From Escherichia phage AV123, in sequence record OR352953.1: 64,000 nt of DNA; one strand, given 5' to 3'. The translations under genes and the position numbers were made by a program. Below are positions 1,878-18,949 of this stretch, in pieces. The first letter of the stretch is position 1, and the number at the start of each line of letters is the position of its first letter. Below the pieces are notes generated by a model. The model had not been told where the DNA came from and ran no database searches. It saw nothing but the letters and a program-made list of their open reading frames with translations.

Positions 1878-3614
1878 TTAGTTTACCAGTTTATTTATGT
1901 CTGGTAAAAGATTTATTTCACCTAAAAAATCACCTTCACCTTCCTCTAGCCAACTCTCATATGCTTGTGCATGATTATAGTTACCATCAAAAGAATCTGC
2001 AACAAATTTTTCTACAGTTTTTCGAGATGTGCCAGCGCCAAATACACCAAGTTTAATACCATTGATCGGTAAAGTGGTACTTGTGGGTACTTTCTCTGTT
2101 GCAACACGGTTGATATCTATAATCTCCTGTACGGTTGTGTTCCATTGTAAGCATTTAACACAACGGGTATGCGCTACATACAGTAGGTTTCGCTCTGCCT
2201 CTTCCAGTCCTACCCATTCACCAGTCTTTTTATCATAGTTGGAAGGAAAATCATTAGCAACAATAACCTGATCCCACTCCAAACCTTTAGACTTGTGTGC
2301 TGTAGTCAGTGTGACTTTTGCTGTAGGAGAATTTCTATGCGTTCTAAGTGTATGTGCTATAGTGTTTGCCTTACCAGAAACTACGATGTTTAACAAGCGT
2401 TTAGCATCTGGATCAGCCTCTGCACACTCAACAAATTCATCCCAGTCTGCGTAAGGTAATACAGTTTCATGTTTTACTTTCTCAATATCTCCTCTACGAA
2501 GAGCATTAACACTATCTACCATAGAGATAAAATCCCTGGTATCTACGTTAATAATAATTTCTTCCCCATCTGCAATACGATCCATTGCCTCCATAAGCAA
2601 GGTTAAATTCTTGCGAAAGATGATAGTGTAAGGTTTTGTATAGTCTACAACATCTGATTTGTAGCTACCTACTACAGTATCAAAGCCTTTACCAACCAAA
2701 GGATGACGCAAAGGTTCTTTATCGCTTAAAATCATATTGGCAATGTTTGCCACTTTGGGGCCAAAACGGAAGCAAGCAGTTAATGGAAGCTCTGCCCCAT
2801 ATGTAGAGGTTTCCTTCATCATATTTTGGCTTCCACGGAACTGGTAGATGCTCTGATATTCGTCACCCACCACTACTACTTGTTTTGCAGATTTAGCATT
2901 TCGCAGAATAGACAAGAATGCAGGGTTAACATCCTGGAATTCATCCCCAAAAATAATGTCATAACCAAGATCAGCACCAGACAATTCAAACAATTTTACA
3001 TAGGTGTCATGCGTCATCAAAGTATCTGTATTAGGATCAATGCGCTCTCGCCACAATTGTTTTGCATACTTAACTACTTCTGTAATTAGTTTGTGTTCGT
3101 TAATACCTTTTCTTTTAATATCTGCAAGATGTACACCAGGAAAATGTTTACGGCTGATAAAAGGATCATCCGAAAATTCAAACTTACCTACGGTTTGCTT
3201 GATCATTAAACCAATCATAGCACGAGTTAAAAGTGTTTTCCCTCGCTTATCAATAAGATTATTAATCTTAAATTTCTTTGCTATTTCACTACCTGTACCT
3301 GCAACGTTAACATACTGTCCTTCTGGTCGTGACAGTTTTGCACGTAAACGATGATCCAGGAATTGATAGCAAATAGAATGCAATGTACGGCATTCTACAT
3401 TTAGTGGCATCTTACGTCGTGCTTCTTCTGCCATGCTTTTATTGAAAGCTAAGTAAAGAATGCGATCTTCTGTACTGTTAGCCAGCAAATAAAGTGTTGA
3501 CGTTTTGCCTGATCCAGATTTAGCTTGGATAGTTAAAAAGCGATGGTCTGGAAAAGCCTCCTTAATAGCTGTTTGCTCTTCTGTTGGAGTGAAGCTCAAC
3601 TCTTTCTTAGCCAT
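1878..3614 (-). CDS. UvrD/Rep-like SF1 DNA helicase
   Basis: Walker A AKSGSGKTST, DEFQD, VVVVGDEYQSIYQFRG; start reset to ATG 3612-3614 with GAGAGG RBS. Confidence 0.8.
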   Translation of the reverse strand: MAKKELSFTPTEEQTAIKEAFPDHRFLTIQAKSGSGKTSTLYLLANSTEDRILYLAFNKSMAEEARRKMPLNVECRTLHSICYQFLDHRLRAKLSRPEGQYVNVAGTGSEIAKKFKINNLIDKRGKTLLTRAMIGLMIKQTVGKFEFSDDPFISRKHFPGVHLADIKRKGINEHKLITEVVKYAKQLWRERIDPNTDTLMTHDTYVKLFELSGADLGYDIIFGDEFQDVNPAFLSILRNAKSAKQVVVVGDEYQSIYQFRGSQNMMKETSTYGAELPLTACFRFGPKVANIANMILSDKEPLRHPLVGKGFDTVVGSYKSDVVDYTKPYTIIFRKNLTLLMEAMDRIADGEEIIINVDTRDFISMVDSVNALRRGDIEKVKHETVLPYADWDEFVECAEADPDAKRLLNIVVSGKANTIAHTLRTHRNSPTAKVTLTTAHKSKGLEWDQVIVANDFPSNYDKKTGEWVGLEEAERNLLYVAHTRCVKCLQWNTTVQEIIDINRVATEKVPTSTTLPINGIKLGVFGAGTSRKTVEKFVADSFDGNYNHAQAYESWLEEGEGDFLGEINLLPDINKLVN

Positions 3615-4637: not shown

Positions 4638-5003
4638 TTAAACGTTTTCTAAATCTTTTAAGGCATTACCCAACGTTAGAACAATAACATCATTTGCTGC
4701 CTCTTCCCCATTGATATTGGTGAAATTTGGTGTTACAAAAGTAACCATATAAAACTCGTCCACCTGGAAGATAGCAATAACACCATCCATCTTAACATCT
4801 TGACGAAAGGAAAAACCAATCATCTTCTCTTGCAAAGGCATATCCCCTTCCTTCATTACTGCCAGGGAGTCTTCAGGAATGTTATATTTATCTGCTCCGA
4901 TGTAGATGTATGTAATGTTATCTTTATCGTGATGATACAGGGTTGCTTTTTCCATATCTAAACCTGACAGATCAAATACGTTAATTTCTTGTGTAGTCTT
5001 CAT
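4638..5003 (-). CDS. hypothetical protein
   Basis: start reset to ATG 5001-5003 (GGGAGGA RBS); track N-extension overlaps upstream gene. Confidence 0.55.
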   Translation of the reverse strand: MKTTQEINVFDLSGLDMEKATLYHHDKDNITYIYIGADKYNIPEDSLAVMKEGDMPLQEKMIGFSFRQDVKMDGVIAIFQVDEFYMVTFVTPNFTNINGEEAANDVIVLTLGNALKDLENV

Positions 5004-5367
5004 AAATATCCTCCCAAATCCAATAATCATCTGTGTAAGTAGGATGCCTTTTATCCCACTCTGTTCTAGCCCAAGCAACCGCTGCTACCAACACATCACC
5101 ATGACAAGGTTGAGGTGCGCAGAAGCAAACTAAGTCTTTCCCTTCTAATTCTAACAAATCCTCAAGAGTGATTTTACCACAACGAATTTGTTCCCACAAC
5201 CACTCTTTATATCTTTGTATAGTTGACCCTCGTGGTTCATCATCCTTTAACTTAAAAGGATTTGCAAACTTTGAGGCTTTTAACCCCATATGAGGCATAG
5301 CTCTGCCAATGTAAACTGCACCTTCAGGTATTACTTTACCTAAGTGGTAAAAATTTAATACTTTCAT
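4981..5367 (-). CDS. DUF4326-family protein
   Basis: YIGR...NPF...C.C.P.PCHGDVL motifs; start reset to ATG 5365-5367. Confidence 0.5.
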   Translation of the reverse strand: MKVLNFYHLGKVIPEGAVYIGRAMPHMGLKASKFANPFKLKDDEPRGSTIQRYKEWLWEQIRCGKITLEDLLELEGKDLVCFCAPQPCHGDVLVAAVAWARTEWDKRHPTYTDDYWIWEDIYEDYTRN

Positions 5368-5368
5368 A

Positions 5369-5719
5369 TTAACCCAAACACATCTGTGCAATCAAGCCCT
5401 GTATAAATTTATTAGCTTCTTTACTGTCGTAGTCAGTCTCTTCTGGATATCCATCTTCATCGTACACAACTGTACCTTCAATATACCCTGCCTCAATTAA
5501 GGCGCGGATCATATCAAATTGCCAGCATGAGTTACCAAATGGACGTTTACCATTAAAACACTCTTCTTCTCTCCATAACGTAGAGAGTAGTTGTCGGAAA
5601 TATTCCCGTACAGTGACAGTACCAAGATCTGAATCCTCAAACATAACATCCAAGGCATCAGGATTGCTTTTCTCTACATAAGGAATATATTTAACACCAT
5701 TAATAGTTACATCAAGCAT
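5369..5719 (-). CDS. hypothetical protein
   Basis: 116 aa ORF. Confidence 0.5.
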   Translation of the reverse strand: MLDVTINGVKYIPYVEKSNPDALDVMFEDSDLGTVTVREYFRQLLSTLWREEECFNGKRPFGNSCWQFDMIRALIEAGYIEGTVVYDEDGYPEETDYDSKEANKFIQGLIAQMCLG

Positions 5720-6082
5720 TTATTTCTCCTTATCATCATATTCTAGGAACATATCTGCACGATATGCTTTACGCTCTTCAAACTTAGCAGGATCTACAAC
5801 AATAAGCAATACAAGGTTAACATCTAAATACTTCTTAACAAATAGAAATAAATCTTTTCCACAGTTAAAACCTACACCAGTATAGGCATCCCCATATTGA
5901 TCTACTGATTTAATCTTCTTACTAACCGTACACTCTATGCTATTCTTTTCTTCTTGGTATAAGGCTTTCCCACCCCAATATGTAAAGAATTTAGTACCGT
6001 CAGCACCAAGTTTAAAACCCTCTGTTGCATGTCCCGCAAATGAAAGTAAACATAACCAAGTGATCATCAGGTACTTTAGCAT
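5720..6082 (-). CDS. secreted protein with N-terminal signal peptide
   Basis: MLKYLMITWLCLLSFAGHA signal-like N-terminus; ATG 6080-6082 with GGGTGG RBS. Confidence 0.55.
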   Translation of the reverse strand: MLKYLMITWLCLLSFAGHATEGFKLGADGTKFFTYWGGKALYQEEKNSIECTVSKKIKSVDQYGDAYTGVGFNCGKDLFLFVKKYLDVNLVLLIVVDPAKFEERKAYRADMFLEYDDKEK

Positions 6083-6083
6083 T

Positions 6084-6566
6084 TTAACCACCCAATTGTA
6101 AATGTTTAGAAAGAACAATATCCCATTGATCACCACAGCCGTTATCTATGCGGAACATAATGTACGTATCATCTTCTTCTACGACATATAATACCTCATA
6201 GGAATTACAACAACCTTCCCAATTTTTAACAGCCTCTGGTGTATCATGTGTAAGAATTTCATTACCATCGTATGACCAAAACAAAGGGGTAAGGTTTTCG
6301 AAGGTCAGTGAAGTAGGGTTTACTTCATCTTTAACTGCTTCCTCATATTCTTTATGCGTTTGTACTGCTTTAGTTAGTGTACTCATGTCTATCTCCTTTT
6401 CTCCTTCTTGACTATGGAGGATAGCGAACTCTCTAAACTCCACTTCACGCCATGTTTTTAGGTAGTGCTTTATAATTTTATCAACATCTGCCTGTTCAAC
6501 ATTACTTTTCAAGCAATAGTAATCATGGTCTTCGCCCATTCTACCCCATATGCTATACCTTGTCAT
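6084..6566 (-). CDS. hypothetical protein
   Basis: 160 aa ORF. Confidence 0.5.
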   Translation of the reverse strand: MTRYSIWGRMGEDHDYYCLKSNVEQADVDKIIKHYLKTWREVEFREFAILHSQEGEKEIDMSTLTKAVQTHKEYEEAVKDEVNPTSLTFENLTPLFWSYDGNEILTHDTPEAVKNWEGCCNSYEVLYVVEEDDTYIMFRIDNGCGDQWDIVLSKHLQLGG

Positions 6567-6834
6567 CTGATTGATCCTTTACATTGCTCTTGGTATACAC
6601 AGGAATAACATCGTGTTGATCTTTATTACTTTCATCTGTTAAAGCCCAAAACAACTTACCTGCTGGATGTTTAAAGATGTAGGCAATAGGTTCCTCTTCC
6701 TGTGCTTCTTTGCTACGGATACCATCCCGCCAGGCAAGCCAAGTGTAGATCATCACTTCTTGACGTTCTTCTTCGTTAGGCCACATATGTGGTGGGAAGG
6801 TTTTATCAAACCATTGCTTAAATTCTTCGGTCAT
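6553..6834 (-). CDS. hypothetical protein
   Basis: 93 aa ORF. Confidence 0.5.
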   Translation of the reverse strand: MTEEFKQWFDKTFPPHMWPNEEERQEVMIYTWLAWRDGIRSKEAQEEEPIAYIFKHPAGKLFWALTDESNKDQHDVIPVYTKSNVKDQSDDKV

Positions 6835-6844
6835 AATCTACTCC

Positions 6845-7009
6845 TTAACGTACAAAGTTAACCTCTGCTTCTTTCAGCTTTGACACTTCTACATAACCAC
6901 CATGATCATCTTTAATCCATTCTTTTCCTTTACGGATGATAACAGGGTAGGTAGAGTGAGTAAGTTTAGGTACAGATCTTTTTGTTTTAGTGATAGAAAT
7001 GTTTTGCAT
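6845..7009 (-). CDS. small hypothetical protein (54 aa)
   Basis: hand-translated ORF below track threshold; AGGAG RBS 6 nt upstream of ATG 7007-7009. Confidence 0.45.
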   Translation of the reverse strand: MQNISITKTKRSVPKLTHSTYPVIIRKGKEWIKDDHGGYVEVSKLKEAEVNFVR

Positions 7010-7069
7010 AATAATCTCCTTAGTAAACTTTACATAGAGTCTAGATTATTTAGTAGATAGAGTCAATAA

Positions 7070-7336
7070 CTAATTACTGTTAGATCTGTATTCTGTCTTC
7101 CATTCACAATGGTAAACTTCAACAGGTTCTAACTTCCAGTGTTCAGGAACTAGTTCAGGACAATATCTACAAAAGAGAAATAGATAGATAACTAAGACAG
7201 GTATTAAATAGTAAAATGGTATACGATCATAACCATACTTACGAGATAACATGTAGACATATAGATATGGTATAACAATTAAACCTATAACTATAAGTAA
7301 GAAGAGAAGTATAAACCTTAGTGTAGTAACATCCAT
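7070..7336 (-). CDS. small membrane protein
   Basis: 88 aa, two hydrophobic segments. Confidence 0.5.
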   Translation of the reverse strand: MDVTTLRFILLFLLIVIGLIVIPYLYVYMLSRKYGYDRIPFYYLIPVLVIYLFLFCRYCPELVPEHWKLEPVEVYHCEWKTEYRSNSN

Positions 7337-7414
7337 AGTATTCTCCTATACAGTAATATACTCTGTTCCTGCCCCTCCATGAGTGACAGGAACAATATCT
7401 ATAGAGAATACTAA

Positions 7415-7468
7415 CTCGCTTCGCTCGTCACCTTTCAGGTTTAGGGTAGCATGTTTTTCTGAAAAAGT
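7415..7468 (+). other. conserved intergenic element, copy 1 (CTCGCT-CGCTCG...TTAGGGTAGCATGTTTTT..GAAAAAGT)
   Basis: second copy at 34586-34638 with an 18-nt identical core; hairpin immediately upstream in both copies. Confidence 0.5.
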
Positions 7469-7500
7469 CAATACTCTCCACAAAACTTTACAAAATACTT

Positions 7501-13409: not shown

Positions 13410-13961
13410 ATGCGGATTACTGATAAGTATGTGTTCTTCTTTTCAGCAAAAGATGAATTTAGCAACTGGTATCTATCATCTTTTATTGAACCTTTAGCAC
13501 CCAAGTATAATAATTCTATTACAAGTTCTGTTGAATTTACTTGTGTGGAACAATATATGATGTGGAGAAAAGCATGTTTGTTTTATGATTACAGTATTGC
13601 ATCTTCTATTTTAACCGGAGATCTAAGATATACAGGAGAAAAAGAACAAGCATATTATAAGCGACTAGGCAGATTAGTTAAAGATTATGATGAAGATACC
13701 TGGACTTCTTTACGGGAGAAGATTGTCAAACGTGGTTTGTATCTTAAATACACACAAAATGAAGATCTCAAAAATAAACTTATAACCTACGCAGATAAGG
13801 AGTTCGTAGAGGCAAGCCCTTATGATTCTATTTATGGTATCAAAATGGGGATGTGGGATCGTGACGTGGAAAATAAGGACTGTTGGAAAGGACAAAATCT
13901 TTTAGGAAAATGGCATACAGACCTTGCTGTTTATCTAAAAGCACAATCTGATATTTCCTGA
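13410..13961 (+). CDS. NADAR (YbiA-like) domain protein
   Basis: 183 aa; FF.S..EFSNW, VEQYMMW.KA, SPYDSIYGIKMG, NLLGK motifs recalled from NADAR/DUF1768. Confidence 0.6.
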   Translation: MRITDKYVFFFSAKDEFSNWYLSSFIEPLAPKYNNSITSSVEFTCVEQYMMWRKACLFYDYSIASSILTGDLRYTGEKEQAYYKRLGRLVKDYDEDTWTSLREKIVKRGLYLKYTQNEDLKNKLITYADKEFVEASPYDSIYGIKMGMWDRDVENKDCWKGQNLLGKWHTDLAVYLKAQSDIS

Positions 13962-14175
13962 TATTTTGAAAATTTTTATTTTTATAAAAAGGGGTGTGGG
14001 TTTCATGTACGGAAATTCACCCTCTGAATAATATATTCAGAGTAAATATTATTTTGTACTCTGTTAATAAATTATTTAATTTGTTTGTTGGATTATGATA
14101 TCTGGTTTTTAAAAGGCATACTATCTCTTAACTACTATTTATAACAGAACAGTAAAATCATTTTTATAAAAAGGA

Positions 14176-14382
14176 CAAAATTATTTAAAGTTTTTACAGA
14201 TTTTTGGATACAAATTTTGAAAATGAAAAGTTCAAGTTTGGTCAAAATTATTTAAAGTTTTTGTATGTATTTCTATCCAGATTTTGAAAATGAAAACTTC
14301 AATTTTTTAAAAATTCCCCAGTTTATTTAAAGTTTTTTTGCCTTTTTCCGTAGAAAAATCAAAAATGAAAAGTTCAATTTCG
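14176..14382. repeat. three tandem ~65 bp AT-rich direct repeats
   Basis: units at 14176, 14243, 14320 sharing ATTTAAAGTTTTT...ATTTTGAAAATGAAAAGTTCAA. Confidence 0.7.
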
Positions 14383-14400
14383 TGTTTTTATAGGTGTGTT

Positions 14401-14513
14401 AATGAGAATCATTTTCGTTTGTAAATGAGAATCATTATCATTTAACTATGTAAGTGATAATCATTCTCACTAAGAGAATGAGAATCATTAGCAAATGAGA
14501 ATTTTTCTCATTT
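14401..14513. promoter_or_regulatory. cluster of five Fur-box-like palindromes (ATGAGAAT-C-ATTCTCAT family)
   Basis: copies at 14401, 14424, 14454, 14474, 14493; one symmetric substitution from E. coli Fur core TGATAATCATTATCA. Confidence 0.5.
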
Positions 14514-14774
14514 AGAGAATAACGCGCAGGGGTGGTGTTTGTCTCGCGCTCCCGTGTCCCCTCGCCATACAATAAGAATAGCATAACCAACAACAAAAGC
14601 AAGCGATTATTTTTATCTTTACATTTCTTTACAAATTTATTTTAGACGAGCTACCAGCGATCAACCTTCCAACCAGTGCCCCCTGGTATGTTAGCCCCGC
14701 CTTTACGCCGTGGGGATGGCGCTTCCTCTTCTGTATGTAAAACAGTATAAGCCCGATCCCTGGGCTTGTCAAGA

Positions 14775-15041
14775 TTATTTTTTGTTTTCTTGCCAGGATA
14801 GGACACCTAACCAAAAATACATGTCGCCCCGCGCCCCTGGCGGGATCTTGCTTTCCCCGCCGCCACTGCAAGCCCATAGATAACCATTTGCGAACGTATC
14901 AAAATGATCTATTTCTTCCACCTTATGATCGCCCAGGTTGAGAACGGTTTCAACCTTTAAGCCCGTTGCGCTTGCTACCTGGTGCACCGTGCCGCCTTGC
15001 CAGCCTAATGAGTGCATGAGGTGTGAAGTAGTATTTGTCAT
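14775..15041 (-). CDS. hypothetical protein in GC-rich island
   Basis: 88 aa; ATG 15039-15041 with AAAGGG RBS; GC-rich unlike surroundings; overlaps a second ORF (14629-14877) in another frame. Confidence 0.35.
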   Translation of the reverse strand: MTNTTSHLMHSLGWQGGTVHQVASATGLKVETVLNLGDHKVEEIDHFDTFANGYLWACSGGGESKIPPGARGDMYFWLGVLSWQENKK

Positions 15042-15152
15042 GGTATCGCCCTTTCTTTGATGTGCGCCCTGGTTGGCGCGGTAGAAAGATAATAGCCCTT
15101 TCCTTTATAGATAGCAAGCAAAAAAGAAATGAAAAAAAGATTAAAAAAGGGG

Positions 15153-15181
15153 TTGACGGTTGGAACGATTAACGCTATTTT
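15153..15181 (+). promoter_or_regulatory. candidate sigma70 promoter
   Basis: TTGACG-17-TATTTT upstream of 15247 ORF. Confidence 0.3.
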
Positions 15182-15246
15182 GTTAGCCGTTCCAGTGTGG
15201 ATCACTGTAGCAATTGTTGTTTCAATCATTCTATAAGGCGCACACT

Positions 15247-15387
15247 ATGAGCAAGGTAATTAATCATAAAGAGTTAAACCCTACCCTTTCAATGAGTGAA
15301 TGTACCGATGGTTTTTGGCTGTATGATGATACGCGCGGTATGAATTTAGCCATGCGTGAAAAAAACAGAAGAGGCGGCGTATATTAA
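15247..15387 (+). CDS. small ORF (46 aa), possibly 5' part of a frameshifted gene
   Basis: ATG 15247; ends shortly after an A7 tract (15359-15365). Confidence 0.35.
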   Translation: MSKVINHKELNPTLSMSECTDGFWLYDDTRGMNLAMREKNRRGGVY

Positions 15388-15529
15388 AGCCCTGGGCTAC
15401 TATCAGGAGCGATTAAAGGAAGTAGAAAACAATTATAATAACCTAAAAGCAAAAGTAGATCACTTTATCAGCCAGGTAGCTCATGACGACGATGATCACT
15501 ACTGCGAACAATGTGGATCATATAGTTAA
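15356..15529 (+). CDS. small ORF in +1 frame, possibly 3' part of a frameshifted gene
   Basis: open from 15350; GTG at 15356; coiled-coil-like sequence; overlaps upstream ORF at the A7 tract. Confidence 0.35.
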   Translation: MKKTEEAAYIKALGYYQERLKEVENNYNNLKAKVDHFISQVAHDDDDHYCEQCGSYS

Positions 15530-15547
15530 AATTATCTAAAAATATTC

Positions 15548-15607
15548 TTGACAACGTTTTTTAATCTGATAAGATGTAACAAATAAGGCGGGAAGTGGTT
15601 TCCCACC
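15548..15607 (+). promoter_or_regulatory. promoter plus leader stem-loop cassette 1
   Basis: TTGACA-16-TAAGAT then GGCGGGAAGTGGTTTCCCACC hairpin, RBS, ATG 15633. Confidence 0.6.
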
Positions 15608-18926: not shown

Positions 18927-18949
18927 TAACAAAGAGAAGAGGAAACATC

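Follow-up and report, generated by a model that had tools for sequence, protein, structure and literature searches.

The two overlapping reading frames found at positions 15247-15529 of the window (the whole stretch of 64,000 nucleotides of the Escherichia phage AV123 genome that was analysed) are a frameshifted copy (a pseudogene, unless the sequence is in error) of a member of the phrog_19040 family, and the gene split by the frameshift thus belongs to an already known family of small phage genes. The split coincides with a run of seven adenines, which is a run of six in the related phages examined. We regard it as rather probable that the additional base is a non-programmed one-base insertion, i.e., a real mutation of the phage. 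The features of the locus are the following:

15247..15529, + strand: the complete gene with its frameshift, an orthologue of Phi92_gp225 (phrog_19040, Pfam DUF1033), of 93 aa if the run is A6.
15247..15387, + strand: ORF1, the truncated product of 46 aa, read directly, matching phrog_19040 at positions 1-41.
15359..15365, + strand: A7 homopolymer, in which the one-base insertion lies; all the relatives with the motif have A6.
15356..15529, + strand: ORF2, the remainder of the gene (long helix and C-terminal HYCxxCG tail), in the +1 frame, matching phrog_19040 at positions 38-94.

The sequence-only reading had placed a 46 aa ORF at ATG 15247 and a +1-frame ORF at 15350-15529, and both sets of coordinates were confirmed by direct reading. 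ORF1 extends from ATG 15247 to TAA 15385-15387 (46 codons, MSKVINHKELNPTLSMSECTDGFWLYDDTRGMNLAMREKNRRGGVY); the +1 frame shows a TAG at 15347-15349, is open from 15350 onward, and stops at TAA 15527-15529. A GTG at 15356 lies in the frame of ORF2, which comprises 57 aa when counted from this codon. The two ORFs overlap at 15350-15387, spanning the homopolymer at 15359-15365, which consists of exactly seven As. The overlap across A7 in the context A AAA AAC, claimed by the same reading, was therefore found as described, and the zero frame reads GAA AAA AAC. The ORF1 product is composed of residues 1-38 of the native protein, followed by eight out-of-frame residues (KNRRGGVY) and by the TAA codon, so that its C-terminus is ...REKNRRGGVY; WPK37415.1, recorded as a hypothetical protein of Escherichia phage AV123, has exactly this sequence. 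In the 64 kb of the window, whose G+C content is 37%, runs of at least seven identical bases are rare, namely two A7 and two T7, with none longer.

When one A is removed from the window sequence, a conceptual fusion of 93 aa is obtained (MSKVINHKELNPTLSMSECTDGFWLYDDTRGMNLAMREKTEEAAYIKALGYYQERLKEVENNYNNLKAKVDHFISQVAHDDDDHYCEQCGSYS), with the junction peptide ...AMREKTEEAAYIK. This protein matches the phrog_19040 profile from end to end (positions 1-94 of 94, E 2.5e-54), as expected from the proposal that an indel has split a single gene. ORF1 alone matches positions 1-41 (E 2.7e-21) and ORF2 alone positions 38-94 (E 1.8e-27); since both match the profile separately and on adjoining parts, the overlap of the two ORFs is not due to chance. 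The fusion also scored 26.7 bits against Pfam DUF1033 (PF06279), whose gathering cut-off is 25. The members of the family are encoded by a single uninterrupted ORF (about 82-105 aa), and the window departs from this organization in that A7 breaks the frame at codon 39.

The conservation of the residues was judged on an alignment of 41 sequences (alignment A2), with the fusion as the first row. All the residues that are invariant in the family (C19, D21, G22, W24, R30, N33, L34, A44, A48, Y51, Y52, Q53, R55, V70, and F73) are present in the fusion, and the conserved stretch …RGMNLAMRxKTxxxAxxxALxYYQxRL… crosses the junction without interruption; around it lie two nearly invariant residues, M36 and K39, and five that are invariant in the 41 sequences, A44, A48, Y51, Y52, and Q53. 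At the level of sequence comparison, these data establish ORF1 and ORF2 as two halves of one gene by ancestry.

Regarding the related phages, the window is phi92-like (Stephanstirmvirinae, Justusliebigvirus), the best Megablast records reaching about 98% identity across 16 kb. In the phages cardinal, phi92, SKA64, and PD114, the corresponding place is occupied by one CDS of 282 nt coding for 93 aa, to which the fusion is 83-97% identical; moreover, phage 121Q has an annotated 94-aa "DUF1033 family protein". In the five-way DNA alignment of the window with the first four phages (mean identity 94%), the gene shows a single gap, of one A inside the run, which is A7 in the window and A6 in phi92, cardinal, SKA64, and PD114. 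That a homopolymer indel has split one gene of roughly 94 aa is thus borne out by the orthologues, which are single 93-aa genes with A6; orthologues organized as two separate genes, which the sequence-only reading had named as the opposite outcome, were not seen.

The same picture emerged from wider searches. A motif scan retrieved A6 in 21 out of 21 related loci carrying the site, including two assembled loci referred to here as L016 and L021, and A7 in the window only. Probing with the fused protein by tblastn returned 57 phage records, in 54 of which 80% or more of the protein is spanned by one unbroken piece. In a large protein collection, 177 homologous clusters were retrieved, and the best 120 of the 177 are single proteins, nearly all of 78-105 aa; one entry of 52 aa among these 120 comes from a contig of 507 nt and is in frame through the junction. 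The exact fused sequence of 93 aa is present in ENA and Logan assemblies. L021 aligns with the window over 1,396 nt with 0 mismatches and the extra A as the single gap; L016, which is part of a contig of 147,661 nt (ERZ27280411 k141_708340), shows 99.81% identity across 6,283 nt, the differences being 11 mismatches and, again, the extra A as the single gap. The search of the 46-aa ORF1 product in the contig index gave no match, and the exact 57-aa ORF2 product has no entry in the protein collection searched. The exact A7 and A6 site patterns were both absent from the viral contigs of IMG/VR, the metagenome contigs of JGI, and the genome contigs of GTDB; since close copies of the gene are missing from these collections, the result is uninformative on allele frequency. 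According to these comparisons of sequences, both the position and the uniqueness of the insertion can be taken as established.

The closest described counterpart of the locus is Phi92_gp225 (CBY99654.1). The conceptual protein of the window is 83% identical to it and reaches 97-98% identity with other members. The gene also occupies the same place: it is preceded by the gp224 homologue, which lies on the opposite strand, and by a small membrane ORF, and it is followed by the gp227 homologue. The difference lies in the run, which is A6 in the family of Phi92_gp225, whereas A7 in the window leaves a 46-aa stub and an orphan +1 frame. A phase-variable (contingency) homopolymer was considered as well and is not supported among the relatives, the run having a constant length, A6 only, in 21 independent loci with about 83-100% protein identity.

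An AlphaFold2 model of the fusion was built from the 41-sequence alignment (mean pLDDT 89). The predicted fold includes four beta-strands (residues 4-9, 14-19, 22-27, and 32-38), one long helix of about 40 residues (41-80), and a C-terminal tail with HYCxxCG modelled at lower confidence; the comparison with solved structures did not reveal any similar one. The frameshift at codon 39 falls exactly on the predicted boundary between sheet and helix, which we treat as a coincidence. In an alternative reading, the locus would consist of two real and separately translated genes, one for a beta-sheet protein of 46 aa and the other for a helical protein of 57 aa; with the break at codon 39, between the predicted sheet (4-38) and helix (41-80), each piece could in principle fold. 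Translation of the second gene would begin at GTG 15356 or, by reinitiation, close to the stop of ORF1, and a GAGG at 15371-15374 does lie 8 nt ahead of an in-frame ATT at 15383 that overlaps this stop; reinitiation at ATT 15383 is nevertheless speculative. The start at GTG 15356, which had been suggested from the sequence, was not supported: the codon is preceded by GGTATGAATTTAGCCATGC, with no GGAGG-like element, that is, no upstream Shine-Dalgarno, and in the A6 orthologues it does not share the frame of the gene. In the window it shares the frame of the downstream part only because the insertion lies 3' of it, and, on the sequence, it is to be regarded as a fortuitous start. A fortuitous GTG without a Shine-Dalgarno sequence implies that ORF2 is probably translated inefficiently. 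Furthermore, the two-gene arrangement is present in no relative examined, the conserved core crosses the junction between the ORFs, and the 57-aa product is absent from the databases searched. Two genes are therefore a most improbable reading of this locus.

A further possibility is that the full-length protein is obtained from A7 by programmed recoding, either through +1/-2 ribosomal frameshifting or through transcriptional slippage, which would imply that products of 46 and 93 aa are made in a set ratio. Some properties of the site fit with this: A_AAA_AAC is a recognised slippery heptamer (e.g., that of IS1), the A run permits a perfect re-pairing of tRNA-Lys after a +1 slip (AAA to AAA), and an mRNA losing one A would have its frame restored. 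Programmed -1 sites such as A_AAA_AAG of dnaX and A_AAA_AAC of IS1 are well known, and the insertion creates by chance an in-frame A_AAA_AAC resembling them. In this frame, however, the heptamer favours a -1 shift, whereas ORF2 requires +1 or -2. The -1 frame (CAG AAG AGG …) closes after 17 codons, and for this reason a -1 frameshift was rejected; unlike that of dnaX and IS1, a -1 shift in the window would lead to a dead-end frame and not to ORF2. The window also differs from these systems in having no stimulatory structure, no upstream Shine-Dalgarno, and no conservation. Indeed, the RNA at 15340-15440, including 76 nt past the run, has a minimum free energy of -13.1 kcal/mol (z = +0.72 against shuffles), so it does not fold better than the shuffled sequences. 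As for a +1 shift, no internal Shine-Dalgarno precedes the site, and the A-site codon is AAC, unlike the stop or rare codon of prfB-type +1 sites; AAC is not a stop codon, nor is it known as a hungry one. Established transcriptional-slippage sites, such as Thermus dnaX and Shigella mxiE, are A/T runs of about nine or more bases, whereas this run is of seven and is unique to the genome of the window. Lastly, the putative recoding site is not conserved, the orthologues with the motif all having A6 and an ordinary in-frame gene, and this lack of conservation, as judged from the sequences, largely refutes programmed recoding. The earlier suggestion that expression needs ribosomal frameshifting is thus not supported, given the uniqueness of A7 to this genome, the wrong direction of the shift favoured by the heptamer, and the lack of a predicted downstream structure; we consider it extremely unlikely.

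A non-programmed insertion could either be carried by the phage or have been introduced by sequencing, library PCR, or assembly; in the latter case the true phage would have A6 and an intact gene of 93 aa. This second explanation is unlikely, although its probability is appreciable. The difference falls in a homopolymer, the usual place of indel errors, and the rest of the gene is the same as in the intact A6 alleles (0 mismatches over the 1,396 nt compared with L021), with no decay of the ORF2 part; the lack of any decay implies either a very recent insertion or an artefact. Moreover, the exact fused protein is on record elsewhere, and A7 was found in no other sequence searched, collections without close copies of the gene being included in this count; that A7 is seen nowhere else is predicted equally by a private mutation and by an artefact. 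Consensus errors at 7-base runs are uncommon in Illumina sequences at normal phage coverage, and the AV123 data come from this platform (MiSeq, 2x250), which argues against an error. AV123 (OR352953), whose source was broiler faeces, was sequenced on an Illumina MiSeq with Nextera XT (2x250) and assembled de novo in CLC Genomics Workbench (PMC10844046). The Nextera XT library preparation includes PCR, a point on the side of an artefact.

To these considerations we can add an indel survey, in which the window was compared with 13 relative loci, among them relatives retrieved through two conserved window proteins, and a frameshifting indel was recorded wherever 80% or more of the aligned relatives disagree with the window. 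The survey yielded six window-specific indels, of which we place only one, the A7 at 15359, inside a gene. The other five (one-base indels at 18943, 23968, 25902, 28502, and 48236) were read as lying between window ORFs of at least 80 aa, in ribosome-binding, T-run, or GC-hairpin regions. No second window-specific indel was placed in a gene over the 64 kb; the assembly therefore does not look indel-prone, consistent with Illumina data. The other A7 run, at 15132-15138, is supported by seven independent contigs, which also speaks against an artefact. On this basis, we infer that A7 is probably present in the DNA of the phage and not just in the assembly.

If the insertion is a real mutation, the following scenario can be depicted. 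The locus is the AV123 copy of Phi92_gp225, a small, DUF1033-like accessory gene of the early region, in which one A would have been gained in the A6 run at codons 38-40 (GAA AAA ACA to GAA AAA AAC A) by a slipped-strand (Streisinger-type) homopolymer frameshift, and the mutation would most likely be carried in the sequenced phage stock. Streisinger strand slippage has its classical hot spots at A5-A6 runs of T4 rII and lysozyme. The window resembles these cases in the gain of one base in a short A run and in the early stop in the shifted frame; it differs from them in being known from a single deposited consensus sequence only. Translation from ATG 15247 would give 38 native and 8 foreign residues before stopping at 15385-15387, and the 55 C-terminal codons would lie in the +1 frame and lack a separate ribosome-binding site, which would amount to a knock-out of the gene. 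A non-programmed slippage of the polymerase or of the ribosome on the A run might produce at most a trace of the full-length protein. The loss would be tolerated because the gene sits in a dispensable mosaic cassette that is missing in many close relatives. Most Justusliebigvirus records match the flanks only (46-48% coverage) and carry a different cassette at this place. Judging from the sequence, the gene appears to be non-functional and dispensable.

It is also conceivable, with a slight probability, that A7 is real and that a function is retained, either through the slippage-restored protein or through the 38-residue beta module with or without a separately initiated helical fragment; in that case, the locus would represent a natural split or a leaky allele of a DUF1033-like early gene. 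The literature search returned three papers with one mention of DUF1033 each, and no member of phrog_19040/DUF1033 is known to have an assigned function.

The real, inactivating insertion that we favour has some practical implications. In place of the 46-aa hypothetical protein, the AV123 record should rather list a frameshifted Phi92_gp225/DUF1033-like gene, or have its sequence corrected in case the reads contain A6. The locus may also serve as a negative example, in which an in-frame A_AAA_AAC between overlapping ORFs mimics a recoding site and the orthologues reveal a one-base accident. The gene is apparently dispensable for the growth of a phi92-like phage, consistent with its patchy distribution; for the rest, the split gene touches no open biological question.

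Some observations can be added on the neighbourhood. Directly 5' of the gene, a 35-aa ORF with a hydrophobic C-terminal half (MKKRLKKGLTVGTINAILLAVPVWITVAIVVSIIL) was found at 15129-15236 (+). Its body, from TTGACGG 15153 onward, is kept in every locus with the DUF1033-like gene, so that the pair appear to travel as a cassette. Its first eight codons in the window and in its closest relatives (loci L016-L022) are of the type otherwise found in L031, a relative with a different cassette, and the resulting N-terminus is an in-frame chimera. The A7 run at 15132-15138 lies at the start of this small membrane ORF, 227 nt upstream of the run at 15359; it is A6 in EmilieFrey and VEcB and A7 in common to seven independent contigs, which points to natural variation, and the frame is unbroken.

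Two sigma-70-like matches flank the gene on the + strand. The first, TTGACG-17-TATTTT at 15153-15181, is located within the small ORF; the second, TTGACA-16-TAAGAT at 15548-15575, is just past the gene and has an extended -10 TG. Overall, six such matches were counted in 850 nt, compared with 1.9 expected from shuffles. The first coincides with the mosaic junction TTGACGG, and this suggests that promoter sequences may be recombination points between gene cassettes.

A region of about 800 nt (13962-14774) separates a NADAR-family gene (13410-13961) from the gp224 homologue (14775-15041, - strand). It embeds no ORF conserved as a gene call in the relatives, Rfam gave only sub-threshold chance matches in it, and it contains one of the two T7 runs of the window (14333-14339); the Rfam and tRNA scans of the neighbourhood revealed nothing credible. 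Finally, the helicase gene is annotated with a length of 2,775 nt in VEcB (positions 4720-7494 of locus L025) and of 1,737 nt in EmilieFrey (3282-5018 of L023). The helicase of the window (1878-3614, - strand), an ORF of 578 aa, has the EmilieFrey length, and that of VEcB may represent an insertion or a fused annotation.
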